Below are positions 13,507 through 60,811 of a stretch of 64,000 nucleotides of DNA, piece by piece. This DNA is from an uncultured delta proteobacterium (GTDB lineage: Bacteria > Desulfobacterota > Binatia > Binatales > Binataceae). The stretch lies in contig CAVXXK010000006.1 of the NCBI GenBank assembly GCA_963765675.1, forward strand, positions 64,001 to 128,000. The letters run 5' to 3'. Each line of letters opens with the position of its first letter. Within the stretch, counting starts at the first letter, position 1. A program made the translations under genes and the position numbers. The notes beneath the pieces were generated by a model that was not told where the DNA came from, searched no databases, and saw nothing but the letters and a program-made list of their open reading frames with translations.

Positions 13507-13678
13507 TCTGATCTCTCGCCCTGAAAGGGAGAGGTAAGGTGAGGGTCCGAATTCAGTGCGCTGCGAAGCAGCGCGCGATTATAAGCAATCTGCTGAACAG
13601 AATTTAAAGGCGCGGCACAACGATGCCGCGCAACTCGGTCCCTCACCTAACCTCTCCCTTTCAGGGCGAGGGATCAGA
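13507..13678. repeat. Palindromic element family A (MITE/REP-like, ~45-bp imperfect terminal inverted repeats)
   Basis: TCTGATCTCTCGCCCTGAAAGGGAGAGGTAAGGTGAGGGTCCGA ... TCGGTCCCTCACCTAACCTCTCCCTTTCAGGGCGAGGGATCAGA; between convergent genes. Confidence 0.85.
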
Positions 13679-16805: not shown

Positions 16806-16980
16806 TCTGGTTCCTCGCCCTGAAAGGGAGAGGTCAGGTGAGGGACCGATCTGCGCGCGGCGTTGTTTGCCGCGCGCCTTAGATTCTGCCCGGGCAGATT
16901 TTTGATAATCGCGCGTTGCTCGGCACCGCGCTGAATTCGGTACCTCACCTGACCTCTCCCTTACTGGGCGAGGAACCAGA
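16806..16980. repeat. Palindromic element family A (inverted relative to the 13507 copy)
   Basis: TCTGGTTCCTCGCCCTGAAAGGGAGAGGTCAGGTGAGGGACCGA ... TCGGTACCTCACCTGACCTCTCCCTTACTGGGCGAGGAACCAGA; internal part resembles the reverse complement of the 13507 copy. Confidence 0.85.
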
Positions 16981-28581: not shown

Positions 28582-28782
28582 CCCTCTCCCCCCGGGAGAG
28601 GGCGACGCGGCGCGGCGATTGCTTTCGTTTAGCAATCGCCGTGACGCGTGGGTGAGGGAGTCCTTGCGCGATTCTCGCGATTCATAATGTTTCTTCGACG
28701 CGTTGGTGGCGTGGTAGGCCGCCCTCACCCGAGGATGCCTTCGCTGTGCGAAGTCATCCTCGGCCTCTCCCGGAGGGAGAGG
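28582..28782. repeat. Family A2 palindromic pair (CCCTCTCCC..GGGAGAGGG...GGGTGAGGG units, inverted)
   Basis: First unit nearly identical to 54914-54989; second unit inverted; between convergent genes. Confidence 0.85.
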
Positions 28783-36221: not shown

Positions 36222-39200
36222 TCAGTGGAAATCGTGCGATGGCGGCGTCGCGCCGGAGAGTTTGATCTCGGCGAATTTGTGCGCGCGGATCGCGGTCACG
36301 CCGTCGACTCTCTGCAAGACACCTTCAGCTTGCAGGATTTGTGCGCTGATAAGCAAAAGCCGATTAGCCTGAAACAGGTTGGGAGTGACGATCAGATTGG
36401 AGATTCCGGTTTCGTCCTCCAGCGTGATGAACAGAAATCCCTTCGCAGTGCCGGGACGCTGGCGCACGATCACAACGCCCGCCGTTTTTACGATCGAGCC
36501 GTGCCGCAGATGCTGCAACTTCGCTGCGCTGAGCACGCGCTGCGCGTCCAGGTCCTCACGCAGATAGCTCATCGGATGCGGTCCGGTCGTGAGGCTGGTC
36601 GCGGCATAGTCGGCGAGGGTCTGCTCGATCGGCGCCATTTCCGGGAGCGGCGCTTTGACCGCCTTGGGCCTCGCGCGTGAGAGCAGGCTCGAGGGATCGC
36701 GCTCGACCGCGGCGGCGTTCCATATCGCGTCGCGCCGCGTCATCTCGAAGGCGGCAAACGCGCCCGCGTATGCGAGCGCGTCGAGCTCGCGGCGATTAGG
36801 GCCGACGCGCGCGGTGAAATCGGCAATCGAATCGAACGGACGGCGGCTGCGTTCGTGCTCGATGCGCGATCCGGTCTCCTCGCGCAGCCCCGTCACATAC
36901 CGCAACCCCATCCGCAGGCAGAGTTCCGATCCCTCTTCCTGTAAGGGAGGTGCCACTGGCACGCGGCCAGGTGAGGGTCCTTCCAGTGCGCAGCGCACCG
37001 CCGTGCCCGATCCCTCGCCCTGAAAGGGAGAGGTTAGGTGAGGGTCCTTATTCAGCGCGGAGCGTAGCGGAGCGCGATTAAAATTCTGGTCAGAGTTTTT
37101 TCTTATTCCCTCCCCGATGCGGGGAGGGTGGCAGGCATCGCCCGTCGGGAGAGGTCGCTCTGGATGACTGGTGATTGTGGTCGTATCGGATCGACCTAAC
37201 CCCTGACCCCTTCCCGCACGGGAAGGGGAATTATCTAGCGATGTGATCGGTGGTTCGCCCTCACCCACGCGGCGTATCGTCGCGTTGCCCTCTCCCGGGG
37301 GGAGAGGGAATACATGTGCCGCCGCGTCGCCTTTTCCAGGAGGGAGAGGAATTACATGCGGCGGTATGCGCCGCGTGCGCTCGATTGTGCATTTCCAGTT
37401 CGAGCGGGTTACATCGATCGGCAGGACGGTCATGCCGCCCCGCTGCGCATCCTTTACCAGCACCGACGGATGGTAAAAGCCCATCGGCCAGCAATTGAGT
37501 ATCGCGGCGAAGAATGCTGCCGGATGATAATACTTCAAATAGGCCGACGCGTAGGCGATCAGCGCGAAGCTCGCGGCGTGCGACTCCGGAAAGCCGTAGA
37601 GCGCGAATGACGAAATCGAAAGCGCGATTTCGTCGGCAACCCTGCCCGTGATTCCATTGCGCGCCATCCCGCTGCGCAGCCGCGCCTCGATTTTCTCCAT
37701 CCTCTCGGCCGAGCGCTTGAACCCCATCGCGCGGCGCAGCTCCTCGGCCTCGCCGCCGGTGAAGCCGCCGACCGTCATCGCGATCCGCAGCAGTTGCTCC
37801 TGGAACAGCGGGACGCCGAGCGTCCGCTTCAGGATCGGCTCAAGGGAAGGATGCGCGTAGATTACCGGCGCGCGTTTGTTGCGCCGATCGAGATACGGAT
37901 TCATCATCTTGCCGACGATCGGGCCCGGCCGGATGATCGCGACCTCGACCACCAGATCGTAGAATTCCTTCGGCTTCATCCGCGGCAGCGTCGCCATCTG
38001 CGCGCGGCTCTCGACCTGGAACACGCCGACGGTGTCGGCCCGCCGCAGCATCGCATAGACGCCGGGATCGTCGGGCGGCAGATGCGCGAGGTCGATCTCG
38101 ACGCCCTCGTGCTCGCGAACCATCGGGATAGTCTCTTCGAGCACCGCGAGCATCCCGAGCCCGAGCAGATCGATCTTGATAATTCCCAGATCGGCGCAAT
38201 CGTCCTTGTCCCACTGCACCACCACGCGCCCCGGCATCGCGGCCGGCTCGAGCGGGACGATCTCGTCGAGCGGCGTCGCGCCGATCACCATGCCGCCGCT
38301 ATGCTGTCCAAGATGGCGCGGGATGCTCTTAATCCGCCGCACCAGATCGACCAGCATCTTGATCCGCGGCGATTCCGCATCGATGCCGCCGCGTTTGAAC
38401 AGAGCGACGAGATCATCGTAATGGTCGCGGAACTCGTAGACCTGGTTGAGCTTGGCCAGCCGATCGACTTGTTCCGGAGAAAATCCCAGCGCCTTGCTGA
38501 CCTCGCGCACCGCGCTCTTGGTGCGATAGGTGATCACGTTCGCGGTCATCGCGGCGCCGTGTTCGCCGTAACGGCGATAGACGTACTGGATGACTTTTTC
38601 GCGCTGATCGCCGCTGGGCAGATCGAGATCGATATCCGGCCATTCGCCGCGCTCTTCGGATAGAAAGCGCTCGAACAGCAGCTTCATCTTGACCGCATCG
38701 ATAGCCGTGATTCCCAGCGCGTAGCACACGGCGCTGTTCGCCGCCGAGCCGCGTCCCTGCGCCATGATCGCGTTCTCGCGGCAGAACTGGACGATATCCC
38801 AGACGATAAGGAAATAGCCGGCGAGCTTCAGCCTTTCGATCATCCCGAGCTCGTGCTCGAGCTGGTGGCGCGTGCGCTCATCGAGGCTCGCGCCCCATCG
38901 GTCGCGCGCGCCTTTGTAGGTGAGTATCCGCAAATAGCTGTCGGAGGTCTCGCCCGGCGGAACCGGATAGCTGGGAAAACGATAGCCCATGTCGGACAGC
39001 GTGAAGGCGCATCGCTCCGCGATCGTGCGGGTGGCGGCGACCGCGTCCGGCAGGTCGCGGAACATCGCGGCCATCTCCGCGGGCGGCTTCAGATGGCGCT
39101 GATTGTTGACCCACAGCGCGCGGCCCGCTTCTTCGAGCGTGGTCTTGAGCCGGATACAGGTGAGGACATCGAGCAGCCGGCGATCGGCGCCGCCGTGGCA

Positions 39201-39788
39201 TACGTCGTTGGTCGCGACGATCGGAAGATGCGCGGCGTCGGCGAGCGCGGCTAGCTTGCGGTTCAGCCGCTCTTCATCGGGGTCGAGATGGCGCTGCAGA
39301 TCGACATAAAAATTTTTCCCGCCGAAGATCCCTTCCAGCCGATCGCAAAGCGGACGCGGGTCTTCTCCTCGAATGAGCATTCGCGAGAGTGGGCTCATCG
39401 TGCCGCCGCCCAGGCAGATCATCCCGCGCCCGTGGCGTTCCAGATCATCCAGCGTGATTCGTCCGGCGCCCTTTGCGGCGCGCAGCTTCGAGCCGGTGAT
39501 CATCCGGCAGAGATTTTTGTAGCGCTCGCGATCCGGAATCAATACGTAGAGACGCGAATCGTCATCGAGGGTCAGTTCAGCGCCGACTATCGGTTTGATT
39601 CGGGCGTCCTTGGCCGCCTGATGGAATCGCGGCGCGCCGTAGAGTCCGTCGCGATCGCCCAGCGCGATCGCGCGGTAGCCAAGCTCAGCCGCCTGCGTGG
39701 CGAGATCCTCGGGCGTCGACGCGCCTTCGAGAAAGCTGAAAGCACTGCGCGCGCGCAATTCGATATAGTCAGTTGAATAGTCAGTCAT
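36222..39788 (-). CDS. dnaE2: Error-prone DNA polymerase DnaE2 (ImuC) with a ~154-aa insertion
   Basis: PHP start YIELRARSAFSFL, GRGSAANS, PDIDLD, GFPESHA, OB fold RQRPGTAKG, terminal SHDFH. ATG 39788 overlaps the imuB stop. Confidence 0.95.
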   Translation of the reverse strand: MTDYSTDYIELRARSAFSFLEGASTPEDLATQAAELGYRAIALGDRDGLYGAPRFHQAAKDARIKPIVGAELTLDDDSRLYVLIPDRERYKNLCRMITGSKLRAAKGAGRITLDDLERHGRGMICLGGGTMSPLSRMLIRGEDPRPLCDRLEGIFGGKNFYVDLQRHLDPDEERLNRKLAALADAAHLPIVATNDVCHGGADRRLLDVLTCIRLKTTLEEAGRALWVNNQRHLKPPAEMAAMFRDLPDAVAATRTIAERCAFTLSDMGYRFPSYPVPPGETSDSYLRILTYKGARDRWGASLDERTRHQLEHELGMIERLKLAGYFLIVWDIVQFCRENAIMAQGRGSAANSAVCYALGITAIDAVKMKLLFERFLSEERGEWPDIDLDLPSGDQREKVIQYVYRRYGEHGAAMTANVITYRTKSAVREVSKALGFSPEQVDRLAKLNQVYEFRDHYDDLVALFKRGGIDAESPRIKMLVDLVRRIKSIPRHLGQHSGGMVIGATPLDEIVPLEPAAMPGRVVVQWDKDDCADLGIIKIDLLGLGMLAVLEETIPMVREHEGVEIDLAHLPPDDPGVYAMLRRADTVGVFQVESRAQMATLPRMKPKEFYDLVVEVAIIRPGPIVGKMMNPYLDRRNKRAPVIYAHPSLEPILKRTLGVPLFQEQLLRIAMTVGGFTGGEAEELRRAMGFKRSAERMEKIEARLRSGMARNGITGRVADEIALSISSFALYGFPESHAASFALIAYASAYLKYYHPAAFFAAILNCWPMGFYHPSVLVKDAQRGGMTVLPIDVTRSNWKCTIERTRRIPPHVIPLPPGKGDAAAHVFPLPPGEGNATIRRVGEGEPPITSLDNSPSRAGRGQGLGRSDTTTITSHPERPLPTGDACHPPRIGEGIRKNSDQNFNRAPLRSALNKDPHLTSPFQGEGSGTAVRCALEGPSPGRVPVAPPLQEEGSELCLRMGLRYVTGLREETGSRIEHERSRRPFDSIADFTARVGPNRRELDALAYAGAFAAFEMTRRDAIWNAAAVERDPSSLLSRARPKAVKAPLPEMAPIEQTLADYAATSLTTGPHPMSYLREDLDAQRVLSAAKLQHLRHGSIVKTAGVVIVRQRPGTAKGFLFITLEDETGISNLIVTPNLFQANRLLLISAQILQAEGVLQRVDGVTAIRAHKFAEIKLSGATPPSHDFH
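36918..37379 (-). repeat. In-frame family A/A2 composite palindromic insertion in dnaE2
   Basis: 462 bp between WKCTIE and LRMGL; contains TCCCTCGCCCTGAAAGGGAGAGGTTAGGTGAGGG and CCCTCACCC...CCCTCTCCC..GGGAGAGGG units. Confidence 0.9.
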
Positions 39789-41689
39789 AAACGCCATCGA
39801 GAAACCATCGCTCCGAGTCAAGATCCCGGAACACGCGGTAAACGCCGCCATCGTCAAGTGCCAGCTCATAGTAATCGCGCAGAAACCCATGCGATCCCTC
39901 TCCCGATTCTGATCCCTCTCCCTGTAAGGGAGAGGCCAGGTGAGGGACCTTATTCAGCGCGGAGCAAAGCGGAGCGCGACTAAAATTCTGATCGGTGTTT
40001 TTTCTGATTCCCTCCCCGATGCGGGGAGGGTGGCGGGCATCGCCCGCCAGGAGAGGTCGTTCTGGACGACTGGTTATGGTGGTCGTATCGGATCGACTTA
40101 ACCCCTGACCCCTCAGAGCAGCACCCTCACCCACGCGCTGCGCGCGTATCCCTCTCCCGGCGGGAGAGGGTTGTTCGGTACGCGCTACGCGCGACTCTGG
40201 GGAAGGGGAACTGTGATTGGACACAATCGGCGGTTCGCCCTCACCCACGCGGCGTACCGCCGCGTTGCCCCCTCCCGGGGGGAGAGGGTATTTCAATGGC
40301 TGCGCGTTACTTGAATTCGTCTTCCACCATTCGCCGTCGCGGCGCCATGGGCCGGCAATCGAGACTACGCGCGCGCCCAGGTTGGGGCCGCGCACGAACT
40401 CGGGCCCTCCGCGCGATTGCATCACCTCGATTTCGAGCGCGGGCCTGAGCGCGCGGATCACAAGCTGCGCGACCGGTTTGCCGCATGCGCCGTTCTCGTC
40501 TGGATGCGGTGGCGGCGGATCGAACGGCTCGATGCGCATGGCCTCCGGACGATACGAATTCTCCGCGCTTAGCGCGCCCACGTTGCCGGGGCCGCATAAT
40601 GCCGCGAGCCGCGCGATCGTGGCCGCGAGCTTATCCGGCGCCGGCGCGGGCGGCAGGAACATGTCGGATTGTGCGGGACGCGGCGCGCGCGGCGTGACTT
40701 CCAGCCGAACGGTCTCGACGGCGGCCTCGGGCGGTGCGGCTTCGAGCGCAAGGTTGATGAGCGTCAGGATCGCACGCACGTCGCAGGTGGGCGCGGTGAT
40801 CGCCACGCGGCGGCTCGCTATTCGATGGTCCTCGAGTCCGAGCACGAGCATCGCATCGCCCGCGGCAAATCCGCGCAGATGAAGGCGCGCGACGATCCGT
40901 TCGAGGACTCCGCGGATCACGAAGCCCAGCGGCTCGAGATTGTCGATCGCGTAGTCGAGTTCGGCGGCCTCGGCAAAAATTTCCGCGCGCCGCCGCGCCA
41001 CGATCGGCCGCGAGCTCCCGCCCCGCGCAAGGCGCACCAGCTCGACGCCGCGGCGTCCGAGCCTGCTGCCAATCGCGTCCGGGTCCAGGCGCGCCAAATC
41101 GCCGAGCCGGCGCATCCCCCAGCGCGAAAACGTGGCCTCGAGCTCCGCGCCGGGATCGAGCATCTCGAGCGGCAGCCAATCGACGAACTCGCGCTCGCGT
41201 CCGGCATCGATCACCCGAACGCCGCCGCATCGCGCCGCCATCGCGGCAATCTCGCGGCTTGCGCCGACTCCGACCGCGGCTTCCATCCCGAGCTTGCGCA
41301 CGCGCCGCTGAAGCTCGATCGCGAGTTCGTCTTCGCTGGTGAAAATCCGCCCCAGGCCCGCGAGGTCGAGCCATACGCATCCGGGATGCGCCCGGCTCGA
41401 CGATCGGCGAGATCGATTCCGCGGCGTCGGCGAGCGCCTGATGCGCTGAATTCTCGGCGGCGGGCGCAGGCGCATTTACGATCAGCCTGGAGCAGATGGC
41501 GCGCGCCTGTGCCAGCGTCATCCCGGCGCGGATTCCCAGCGCGCGCGCGTCAGCGGAGACGGCATCAATCTCGGCGTGAGCGGCGGAGTTTGCGGCGATC
41601 GCGAGAGCGGCGCCTTCGAGAGCGGGATTAGCGCGCACGATCGCGGCGATCGGAAAATCGGGAACCAGGATGCATGCGATACGCGCCAT
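39781..41689 (-). CDS. imuB: ImuB, Y-family polymerase-like protein (apparent +1 frameshift near 41385; ~148-aa insertion)
   Basis: MARIACILVPDFP, ARALGIRAGMTLAQARA, WLDLAGL, RWGMRRLGDLARL, C-terminal GPWR..GEWW...RDYY...WFLDGVYD. Confidence 0.9.
39880..40323 (-). repeat. In-frame family A/A2 composite palindromic insertion in imuB
   Basis: 444 bp between GEWW and RDYY; homologous to the dnaE2 and imuA inserts. Confidence 0.9.
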
Positions 41690-41701
41690 GATACATCCCC
41701 G

Positions 41702-42916
41702 TCATCGCACCGCCGCCGATTCTGATCCCTCGCCCGGCAAGGGAGATGCCACTGGCACGCGGTCAGGTGAGGATCCTTTAGATGTGGAGGGATGCGGAGC
41801 GCGACTAAAATTCTTCTGTCCGGAGCTTTTTCTGATTCCCTCCCCGATGCGGGCAGGGTGGCGGGCATCGCCCGTCGGGAGAGGTCGCTCTGGATGATTA
41901 GACGCGACAGCATGATCAAATTTCAGAGCAGCACCCTCACCCACGCGCTGCGCGCGTTTCCCTCTCCCGGTGGGAGAGGGTATTTCGGTACGCGCTTCGC
42001 GCGGCTCTGGAGAAGGGGAACTATGGGCCAAAGCTATCGGCCATTCGCCCTCACCCACACGGCTTGACGCCGCGTTGCCCTCTCCCAAAGGGAGAGGGGG
42101 ATTACGAGGGAAATTCTGTACGCGCTGCGCGCAATACTGAGGGTCAATCGCCGCGACGATTCGCGTGAGCGCGCCCGAGCCGCCGAGCTTGTTGCGCGTA
42201 ATGACGGGTTCGAGCCGCAGCCCGTCGAAGAGCGTGGGTGCGCCGGGACGGATGCGGCTGAACGACGCGCCGGCGCGATTCATCGTGAGGCTCAGTGCCG
42301 CGAAGGTTCCGCAAATCCTGCGCGGCGCGATCGCGATCACGGCCGCTCCGCTGCGCTCGGCCGCACGCGCGATACGCAGCACGGCGCTGTCGGGGATCGC
42401 GCGAAAAATATCGCCGAAATCGATTACAACCAGGCCGAAGCCTCCCGCCTCGAGCACCATCTCGGCAGCCTTGAGGACTCGTCCCTCGCGCGAAGTGGCA
42501 GGGCGCATGCGGCTAGCCTCCCGCGGAATCGAAGCCCACAGCACGCGCGCGAGTTCGACTCCGGCCGCGGCGATACTGGCGGGATCGAAAGTGCCTGCAG
42601 CGTCGATCCAGGCAATAACCTCGCCGCTCCCGGTTGCATTGGCAGCGAACGCCGTCGCGAGCGAGGTCCTGCCGGTGCCAGCGCGTCCGATAATTTCGCT
42701 GACCCGTCCGCGCGCGATTCCGCCATCGAGCAGGTCATCGAGCGCATCGATACCCGAAGCGAGCCGCCACGCCTTGCGAGTAAGCTCCCGCCCTCGAAAA
42801 ACTCCTGCAAAATCAGCTAGTTGAGACCTGTTTACTGGGACAGGCGAGGGTATATGGAGAGGCGAAATTGCAGGGGATTGGAAAGAAATCCATGGAGCTT
42901 TAATCGCCGCTGCCAT
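41702..42916 (-). CDS. imuA: ImuA, RecA-like protein with a repeat-derived C-terminal extension
   Basis: SGIDALDDLLDGGIARGRVSEIIGRAGTGRTSL, WIDAAGTFDP, AGVELARVLW, GGFGLVVID; first gene of the cassette. Confidence 0.88.
   Translation of the reverse strand: MAAAIKAPWISFQSPAISPLHIPSPVPVNRSQLADFAGVFRGRELTRKAWRLASGIDALDDLLDGGIARGRVSEIIGRAGTGRTSLATAFAANATGSGEVIAWIDAAGTFDPASIAAAGVELARVLWASIPREASRMRPATSREGRVLKAAEMVLEAGGFGLVVIDFGDIFRAIPDSAVLRIARAAERSGAAVIAIAPRRICGTFAALSLTMNRAGASFSRIRPGAPTLFDGLRLEPVITRNKLGGSGALTRIVAAIDPQYCAQRVQNFPRNPPLPLGEGNAASSRVGEGEWPIALAHSSPSPEPREARTEIPSPTGRGKRAQRVGEGAALKFDHAVASNHPERPLPTGDARHPARIGEGIRKSSGQKNFSRAPHPSTSKGSSPDRVPVASPLPGEGSESAAVR
41720..42105 (-). repeat. In-frame family A/A2 composite palindromic sequence forming the imuA C-terminus
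   Basis: Encodes PLPLGEGNA..RVGEGE, HPERPLPTGDARHPARIGEGIRK, SPLPGEGSES, shared with the imuB and dnaE2 inserts. Confidence 0.9.
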
Positions 42917-54913: not shown

Positions 54914-54989
54914 CCCTCTCCCTCCGGGAGAGGGCGACGCGGCGCGGCGATTGCTCTTTTCAGCAATCGCCGTGACGCGTGGGTGAGGG
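54914..54989. repeat. Family A2 unit abutting the family B element
   Basis: CCCTCTCCCTCCGGGAGAGGGCGACGCGGCGCGGCGATTGC...GCAATCGCCGTGACGCGTGGGTGAGGG, near-identical to 28582-28657. Confidence 0.85.
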
Positions 54990-55067
54990 CGGCCTAGCTG
55001 GGTCACCCATCTTTTTTTAACCGCGCGTCGCGGACCGCGCCGAGCTAATCTGGATAGGGTGAACACC

Positions 55068-60404: not shown

Positions 60405-60811
60405 TCTGATTCCTCGCCCTGAAAGGGAGAGGCCAGGTGAGGGACCTTATTCAGCGCGGCGCACGGCGCCACGCGATTACAAAGAGGAACCTAAGTATCG
60501 CGCAGGATCCGCGATCAAGCACGGCCGCCCTCACCCGCGCGTCACGATGCTTGCGAAAAGAGCGCAAGCATCGCGCCGCGTCGCCCTCTCCCGGAGGGAG
60601 AGGGAATCTCGGGGGACCGGTCATTGCGCCTCTCCCGCCGGGAGAGGTCGCGCGAGGCTTCGCTATGCGAAGCCTCGCGCGGGTGAGGGCGGCCTTGCTC
60701 GATCGGGGATGCTTGCTGAATACGCAATTTCCTTTTTTATCGCGCGACGCTGCGCGCCGCGCTGAATAAGGTCCCTCATCTAACCTCTCCCTTTCAGGGC
60801 GAAAGACCGGA
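60405..60811. repeat. Nested palindrome: family A arms enclosing an inverted A2 pair
   Basis: TCGCCCTGAAAGGGAGAGGCCAGGTGAGGGACCTTATTCAGCGCGGCGC ... GCGCCGCGCTGAATAAGGTCCCTCATCTAACCTCTCCCTTTCAGGGCGA; between convergent genes. Confidence 0.9.

Follow-up and report, generated by a model that had tools for sequence, protein, structure and literature searches.

Small palindromic repeats have been described within the genes of several bacteria, and these descriptions supply the closest precedents for the locus considered here. REPs lie within genes, many of which serve replication or repair (dnaE2 included) and which are the only tagged open reading frames (ORFs) in some species (Di Nocera et al. 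2013, PMC3733652). The RPEs of Rickettsia (Ogata et al. 2000, 2002, as summarised in PMC10969869) occupy 44 unrelated genes of one genome. A third group, the BoxC, PIT and TMECO repeats of E. coli (Holder et al. 2015, PMC4666352), offers a counterpart in architecture. Here, we describe a mutasome operon, imuA-imuB-dnaE2, in which all three genes carry a homologous in-frame array of repeat units. It lies in a 64,000-nucleotide (nt) stretch of DNA from an uncultured soil bacterium of the Binataceae (positions 64,001 to 128,000 of contig CAVXXK010000006.1, assembly GCA_963765675.1), which is called the window below.

Gene order, Pfam domains and the conserved C-terminal block of ImuB together identify the locus as an ImuA-ImuB-DnaE2 operon, and it is the only mutasome operon (one) in the genome. 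The dnaE2 frame is open from 39890; its likely start is the ATG at 39797 or 39788, which overlaps the end of imuB. The three genes and their inserts are as follows.

41702-42916, minus strand: imuA, RecA-like mutasome subunit; 404-residue ORF with Pfam RecA, KaiC-type ATPase and Rad51
39781-41689, minus strand: imuB, inactive Y-family homologue, in two frames in this assembly (ORFs 40631-41689 and 39781-41475); Pfam IMS (N-terminal part) and IMS_C
36222-39890, minus strand: dnaE2, error-prone C-family polymerase; 1222-residue ORF with Pfam PHP, DNA_pol3_alpha, finger, HHH_6 and OB
41705-42140, minus strand: repeat mosaic forming the imuA C-terminal tail after VAAID; about 146 codons, carrying the left terminus of the composite
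39880-40323, minus strand: in-frame repeat mosaic of imuB; 444 nt, 148 codons, from GEWW to RDYY of the conserved C-terminal domain
36918-37379, minus strand: in-frame repeat mosaic of dnaE2; 462 nt, 154 codons, from WKCTIE to LRMGL, in a beta-hairpin turn before the HhH domain

An initial annotation, made from the letters of the window, had proposed that these inserts are in frame, homologous and built from the hairpin repeat family of the genome. This proved right. The three aligned as collinear homologues of about 440-460 nt each, and BLASTN searches of the genome gave 76% identity over 406 nt between the imuB and imuA inserts and 90% identity over 203 nt between those of dnaE2 and imuB. 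The lengths and coordinates reported for the dnaE2 and imuB inserts were exact, and the imuA tail proved slightly longer than the 140 or so codons first claimed. Each insert is free of stops in the frame of its gene only, with 2-9 stops in each of the five other frames. Because just one frame of the six is open, the openness of the inserts is not a composition effect. The encoded peptides are rich in Pro, Gly, Arg and Glu.

Both internal sites are short turns in the absence of an insert, as the initial annotation had held. In DnaE2, query residues 103-264 (about 160 residues around the insert) correspond to about 9 residues (880-888) of Taq (Thermus) Pol III alpha, and empty relatives have 3-7 residues there; the DnaE1 paralogue of the same genome has no insert at the homologous loop, its flanking blocks being 4 residues apart. 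In ImuB, the insert separates two blocks that are invariant in the conserved C-terminal domain described in PMC6511836. A comparison of ImuB with the PDB returned the Pol IV core as its sole match, and the insert site lies outside every solved structure matched. The loops formed by the inserts are presumably floppy.

The inserts are mosaics, and several of their modules recur 20-77 times elsewhere in the genome; on the 3' side, every insert has a two-hairpin module with 54 genome copies. Modules M1 and M3 follow one plan, in which a C-rich arm is joined by a 3-nt loop to its G-rich complement, and a small spacer hairpin then leads to another G-rich arm. This BoxC/triplex architecture is also present in the free units at 28582 and 54914. 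Across the genome we counted 149 perfect hairpins of the form Y8-loop-R8, 147 of them in the Y-then-R order. A non-coding context was found for 140 of the 149, which marks them as a dispersed multi-copy intergenic repeat. By their sequence, the inserts can thus be classed as BoxC or triplex-motif-type repeats, with triplex folding predicted. The five free copies that the initial annotation had listed in the window are all present.

28582-28660: free intergenic unit of the insert family, with hairpin, spacer hairpin and third G-run
54914-54995: free intergenic unit of the insert family
13507-13577, reverse orientation: free copy of the two-hairpin family (54 copies) making up the 3' part of the inserts
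16806-16876: free copy of the two-hairpin family
60405-60475: free copy of the two-hairpin family, with more hairpins at 60584-60647

Like the GTAG/CGTC-tagged REPs, these are small palindromic repeats translated in frame in repair genes, where REPs are thought to lie in linkers or loops (PMC3733652). The present units are of the BoxC/triplex type with a third arm, are linked to DUF559 cassettes and are probably not RAYT-linked REPs; the inserts are collinear composites of 440-460 nt, whereas REP dimers code for 20-30 residues (PMC3733652); and all three mutasome subunits as well as MutS carry inserts, across most of a genus of the candidate phylum Binatota. The likeness to Rickettsia RPEs is that of selfish palindromic DNA lying in frame at surface positions of presumably functional proteins (PMC10969869), but the coding copies here are nearly confined to four mutation-rate genes, have no sequence relation to RPEs and belong to a free-living, GC-rich host. 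With BoxC/PIT/TMECO they share the arm architecture, the dispersed multi-copy occurrence and the length-unstable loci (PMC4666352). TMECO of E. coli are described in that text as always intergenic, whereas the units here are translated in imuA, imuB, dnaE2 and mutS, and their triplex is predicted. Because REPs in repair genes, including dnaE2, were reported in 2013 (PMC3733652), the present case is a variant of a known, unexplained pattern. A title-level literature search for imuA, imuB or dnaE2 with insertions or repeats found no paper on translated repeats in these genes.

We consider it probable that the inserts are selfish BoxC-type repeats that were copied among the permissive sites of one operon and are kept open by selection for the frame alone. 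In such a history, units would have piled up into a composite of about 0.4 kb in the ancestor of most of this Binataceae genus. The composite would then have been copied to three or four permissive places, namely the imuA tail, a loop within the C-terminal domain of ImuB, the hairpin turn of DnaE2 and, in some species, a loop of the PHP domain. Modules may later have been gained, lost and occasionally exchanged among the copies, and the encoded peptides would be carried as passenger loops.

To follow the sites through related bacteria, we compared loci from 31 genomes, in which G000 denotes the present one. The unpublished genome G010 is included in these counts and in the pairs used for nonsynonymous to synonymous substitution ratios (dN/dS); leaving it out alters no conclusion. 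The DnaE2 linker was recovered in 8 of the 10 other genomes of the same genus (G002 had no usable locus, and G006 gave repeat-rich contig fragments that are apparently chimeric). It measures 76-192 residues in seven of these eight (G001, G003, G004, G005, G007, G009 and G010), and the remaining one, G008, has an empty site of 3 residues (WKCTIE-GKA-LRMGL). Judged from match spacing, the imuB insert and the long tail of imuA are likewise missing from G008. Outside the genus, the DnaE2 linker comprises 3-7 residues in G012, G015 and G017, 21 in G014, 38 in G013 and 68 in G016. The other two sites behave in the same way: about 40 residues follow GEWW of ImuB in empty genomes versus 105-230 in filled ones, with about 8 residues between GEWW and RDYY in other genera, and the ImuA tail has 20-33 residues in other genera versus 57-185 in filled genomes. 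Among the filled sites, the ImuA tail of G003 has 57 residues and the DnaE2 linker of G004 has 76. Seven distinct insert lengths occur in DnaE2 and seven in ImuB, and every array is open in all intact assemblies.

Two of these genomes have an in-frame array of these modules at a fourth site, the DnaE2 PHP-domain loop between KLRV and PVYPAKG (110 residues in G004 and 79 in G007). At the same loop, G000 and its nearest relatives are shorter than the outgroups (KLRA-AKG), which would fit the loss of an array and of a few codons beside it.

The distribution of the composite within G000 points to copying inside the operon. Matches longer than 200 nt were obtained by BLASTN of the genome only among the three genes, the longest match outside the operon being 144 nt (contig C6, 511742), and the module order of the composite occurs in the operon only. 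The M5 module (74 nt) has three strong copies each in G000, G005 and G009, all within the operon, and a few weak ones besides; G005 has one extra free copy, between putative purC and purS on its contig C1. This free copy is followed by the module that precedes M5 in the operon, so modules exist outside genes in another order. A common left terminus starts many arrays at all four sites in several species, and its string has a single genome occurrence in G000, in imuA. In addition, the imuB copies of one 109-nt segment are 93-94% alike among G000, G001 and G009, and the dnaE2 copy of this segment in G005 carries a 3-nt variant otherwise seen in imuA copies, which indicates exchange between copies. 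Because neither the module order of the composite nor its left end is seen outside the operon, local copying is favoured over a shared function. These data fit an old multiplication within the operon with occasional inter-copy exchange, and we infer that local copying is the reason for the confinement. The initial annotation had listed copying within the operon among its options, and the data support it.

The substitution patterns of inserts and flanks were also compared. For G000 versus G005, dN/dS was 0.035/0.271 in the dnaE2 flanks and 0.064/0.296 in the imuB flanks, and 0.193/0.338 and 0.282/0.506 in the respective inserts. The closest pairs gave ratios of about 0.57-0.77 for inserts, and the flanks about 0.1-0.2, in pairs of related species that are not independent of one another. 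Differences at codon positions 1:2:3, summed over all pairs, were 796:705:994 in the dnaE2 inserts and 3067:2335:8520 in the flanks. Module content varies among species, and hairpin stems decay without compensation in several copies, such as the M5 hairpin of imuA in G000 and of imuB in G001 and G009. The reading frame is thus maintained in the inserts while amino-acid change is nearly free (near neutral). The frame presumably stays open because the downstream domains are needed, and an open frame is the only visible constraint.

Genome-wide censuses were used to examine how far translated copies are confined to the operon. Coding context was assigned with our own codon-usage score, without a gene caller; the true frame scored best in 96% of 300 calibration windows. 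A de novo census, based on 17-mers with at least 5 copies and counting regions with at least 30 masked bases, yielded 443 regions. Seven of them are internal to coding ORFs, including dnaE2, imuB and mutS, and imuA is among 13 tails. As to the other four internal regions, we take three motifs of 47-50 bp to be a paralogous gene family and one 1.2-kb repeat to be an insertion-sequence-like element. A repeat census with k=13 was discarded as too noisy (814 kb masked). Hairpins of the form CCTCNCC..GGNGAGG number 119 in the genome, and those in coding context fall in dnaE2 (two), mutS (one), imuB (three), imuA (one) and one doubtful tail. Likewise, nine of the 149 Y8-loop-R8 hairpins stand in coding context: three in dnaE2, three in imuB, one each in imuA and mutS, and one in the C-terminal tail of a gene on contig C1 (649614-650411). 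In-frame copies are therefore not equally frequent in many unrelated genes; the nine fall in five genes, four of which are mutation-rate genes.

Peptide searches gave a similar picture. The insert peptide of ImuB, searched against all six frames of G000, G005 and G009, returned 43 matches, in which all frames of at least 372 residues were mutasome genes; one of the remaining matches lies in a 363-residue frame and the rest in frames of 30-162 residues. The repeat in the 363-residue frame is 220 nt from the upstream stop, so it probably precedes the start. When 5.8 billion proteins were searched with the insert peptide, 10 matches were found (5 ImuA-like, 3 ImuB-like, 1 DnaE2 fragment and 1 without Pfam assignment), nine of them with mutasome Pfam domains. 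The nearest proteins bear the name 'Candidatus Binataceae bacterium', which places the host in Binatota. The censuses found no insert in any other gene of the window, in line with the initial annotation. Its claim of confinement to one operon nearly holds for the whole genome, but an in-frame unit in mutS and one C-terminal tail lie elsewhere.

The mutS gene (contig C3, 451582-454422) is the sole other internal case in the genome. Its insert (C3, 452119-452253) adds about 45 residues in frame, is coded by a reverse unit of the insert repeat family, and sits in a hairpin turn between the equivalents of E. coli MutS residues 140 and 141. Filled sites of variable length occur in G000, G003, G004, G005, G009 and G010, and the site of G008 is short. 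In other genera it measures 4-6 residues in nine of the 10 aligned genomes and 8 residues in G022. Contigs break at the mutS site in G003 and G007.

Several observations weigh against the view that selfish repeats were simply copied among permissive sites of the operon. The mutS insert is on another contig and consists of a different unit, and G013 and G016, from other genera, hold different small hairpin-coded inserts at the same DnaE2 and ImuB sites; local copying accounts for neither, nor for the published excess of repeats in repair genes (PMC3733652), and it leaves unexplained why translated copies are nearly restricted to four mutation-rate genes. Something beyond chance and local hopping may act. 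No target-site duplication, which together with terminal inverted repeats would mark a MITE, was found at the array junctions examined. No mobilising enzyme was identified, no RAYT search having been made. Furthermore, the protein-guided alignment inflates mismatches, the insert dN/dS below 1 leaves room for weak constraint, and the structure model of the insert region is too poor to show disordered loops.

The concentration in mutation-rate genes can be read in another way, namely that triplex- or hairpin-forming repeats are no random passengers but are attracted to, or retained in, such genes (in other phyla repair genes, here MutS and the mutasome subunits). Either insertions that tune mutagenesis would spread through second-order selection, or the repair of structure-stalled forks would write repeats into these loci. 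We regard this idea as rather unlikely. If it were true, the length-variable arrays would amount to a heritable control on evolvability. Another option of the initial annotation, preferential targeting of the locus, may have played a part; it agrees with the pattern in PMC3733652.

Second-order selection taken by itself, in which insertions alter mutation-rate genes and thereby the mutation rate, rise to fixation alongside beneficial mutations that they helped to bring about and are tamed afterwards, appears unlikely. It would explain why coding copies sit almost solely in mutation-rate genes: eight of the nine coding-context hairpins of G000 are in imuA, imuB, dnaE2 or mutS, and the mutS turn is filled with variable length in six genomes of the genus and not in other aligned genera. 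A mutator link was also proposed for repair-gene REPs by Di Nocera et al. 2013 (PMC3733652). However, this genome offers just two independent loci, counted post hoc, purifying selection of the ordinary kind acts on the flanks of imuA, imuB and dnaE2, a functional effect of the inserts is a supposition, and tolerance of these particular loops could yield the same picture.

A role at the level of nucleic acid, in which mRNA hairpins or triplex/hairpin DNA in the template would damp or time the expression of a dangerous operon, is rather improbable. In the RNA-folding comparison suggested in the initial annotation, folding was much stronger for all three inserts than for shuffled sequences (z = -4.06, -6.28 and -4.03; none of 100 shuffles did as well in any case), and triplex motifs of this class are reported to block polymerases during primer extension and to be markers of unstable loci (PMC4666352). 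Strong folding is nevertheless inherent to any copy of these repeats; the stems decay uncompensated in several copies, and the module set varies by species. Moreover, work on PIT/BoxC in E. coli, as summarised in PMC4666352, reports them to be without promoter, terminator or RNA polymerase effect.

We find it very doubtful that the peptides common to the three proteins serve all mutasome subunits as a functional tag or a flexible tether, for example for co-assembly or a common partner. The initial annotation had proposed a common tag, which is not supported. The same modules do occur in the same order in all three proteins of several species and are kept in frame. Yet the insert dN/dS is about 0.6-0.8, module content differs among species to the point that whole modules are missing in some (ImuA of G003 and DnaE2 of G004), the operon is kept without inserts in G008 and other genera, and most modules are ordinary intergenic repeats.

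That the cluster is a decaying pseudogene array or an assembly artefact, which would render the in-frame state meaningless, is largely refuted and hardly credible: a +1 frameshift in imuB, the draft state of the assembly (16 contigs, 4.3% contamination) and the chimeric-looking contigs of G006 across repeats speak for it, but the frameshift is seen in G000 only and away from the insert, imuA and dnaE2 of this genome are intact, imuA, imuB and dnaE2 are all intact in G004, G005, G007 and G009, the flank dN/dS is 0.1-0.2, and the junctions are present in independent assemblies and metagenome contigs.

The locus is an unusually clean case of palindromic repeats translated inside repair genes, with one repeat class in four mutation-rate genes and almost nowhere else in coding sequence, and with arrays that, by the evidence above, were copied between genes of one operon. 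It also shows that BoxC-type units, described as strictly intergenic, can persist in proteins for long. The relatives provide a natural allele series, from empty sites (G008 and other genera) up to arrays of about 190 residues, and this series permits direct tests of the effect of an insert on mutasome or MutS activity.

The frameshift of imuB, which the initial annotation had missed, is located as follows.

41383-41388, minus strand: +1 frameshift in imuB; one extra base near 41386, outside the insert and not in a homopolymer

It splits imuB into two frames after about codon 100. The extra base is absent from all eight closely alignable loci of relatives, and metagenome contigs of relatives from two runs are also without base 41386. 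The frameshift may reflect a true inactivation of imuB in this strain or else a fault of assembly. Misassembly of the inserts is unlikely, given that seven further assemblies have these sites filled and that contigs from two metagenome runs bridge the junction between the imuB core and its insert. The metagenome contigs are mostly from relatives. At most 0.17 of the sampled words occur in any one sequencing run, and no RNA run is listed among those that share them. The many contig joints between the three inserts may stem from repeats or from other organisms. Contigs of G006 and G008 (C320) fuse parts of imuA straight to parts of dnaE2 across the arrays, by misassembly or recombinational deletion.

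Two further features of the operon were noted. A conserved QxDMFLPP motif of imuB lies at 40600-40640, upstream of the insert and outside it, and is present in the aligned relatives; it resembles the consensus of a beta-clamp-binding motif. The SOS box GTTC-N7-GTTC of alphaproteobacteria, which may not be the consensus of this Binataceae host, had 0 matches in the window and was not found in the 284 nt upstream of imuA even at one mismatch.

Finally, units of the insert family accompany nuclease genes. G000 has five DUF559 nuclease genes, and three of them are bracketed by forward and reverse units of the triplex type.

Contig C1, 182326-182879: DUF559 gene bracketed by triplex-type units
Contig C1, 1606712-1607238: DUF559 gene bracketed by triplex-type units
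Contig C15, 112981-113514: DUF559 gene bracketed by triplex-type units

The fourth DUF559 gene has hairpins only, and the fifth is broken by a stop. In each insert of the operon, forward units stand on the 5' side and reverse units on the 3' side, as at the DUF559 cassettes, and the left end of one cassette finishes with the letters of module M3. A DUF559 remnant at the centre of the inserts was ruled out, the cassette matches being in the terminal units only. The long spacer hairpin of the free units is flanked by GACG (CGTC on the opposite strand), and the translated units have short spacers and no clear tag. A reverse unit is also read through on contig C1 of G000, where the frame of a gene (649614-650411) continues through it and gains a predicted C-terminal tail of about 70 residues; the N-terminal part of the product is presumably a methyltransferase.

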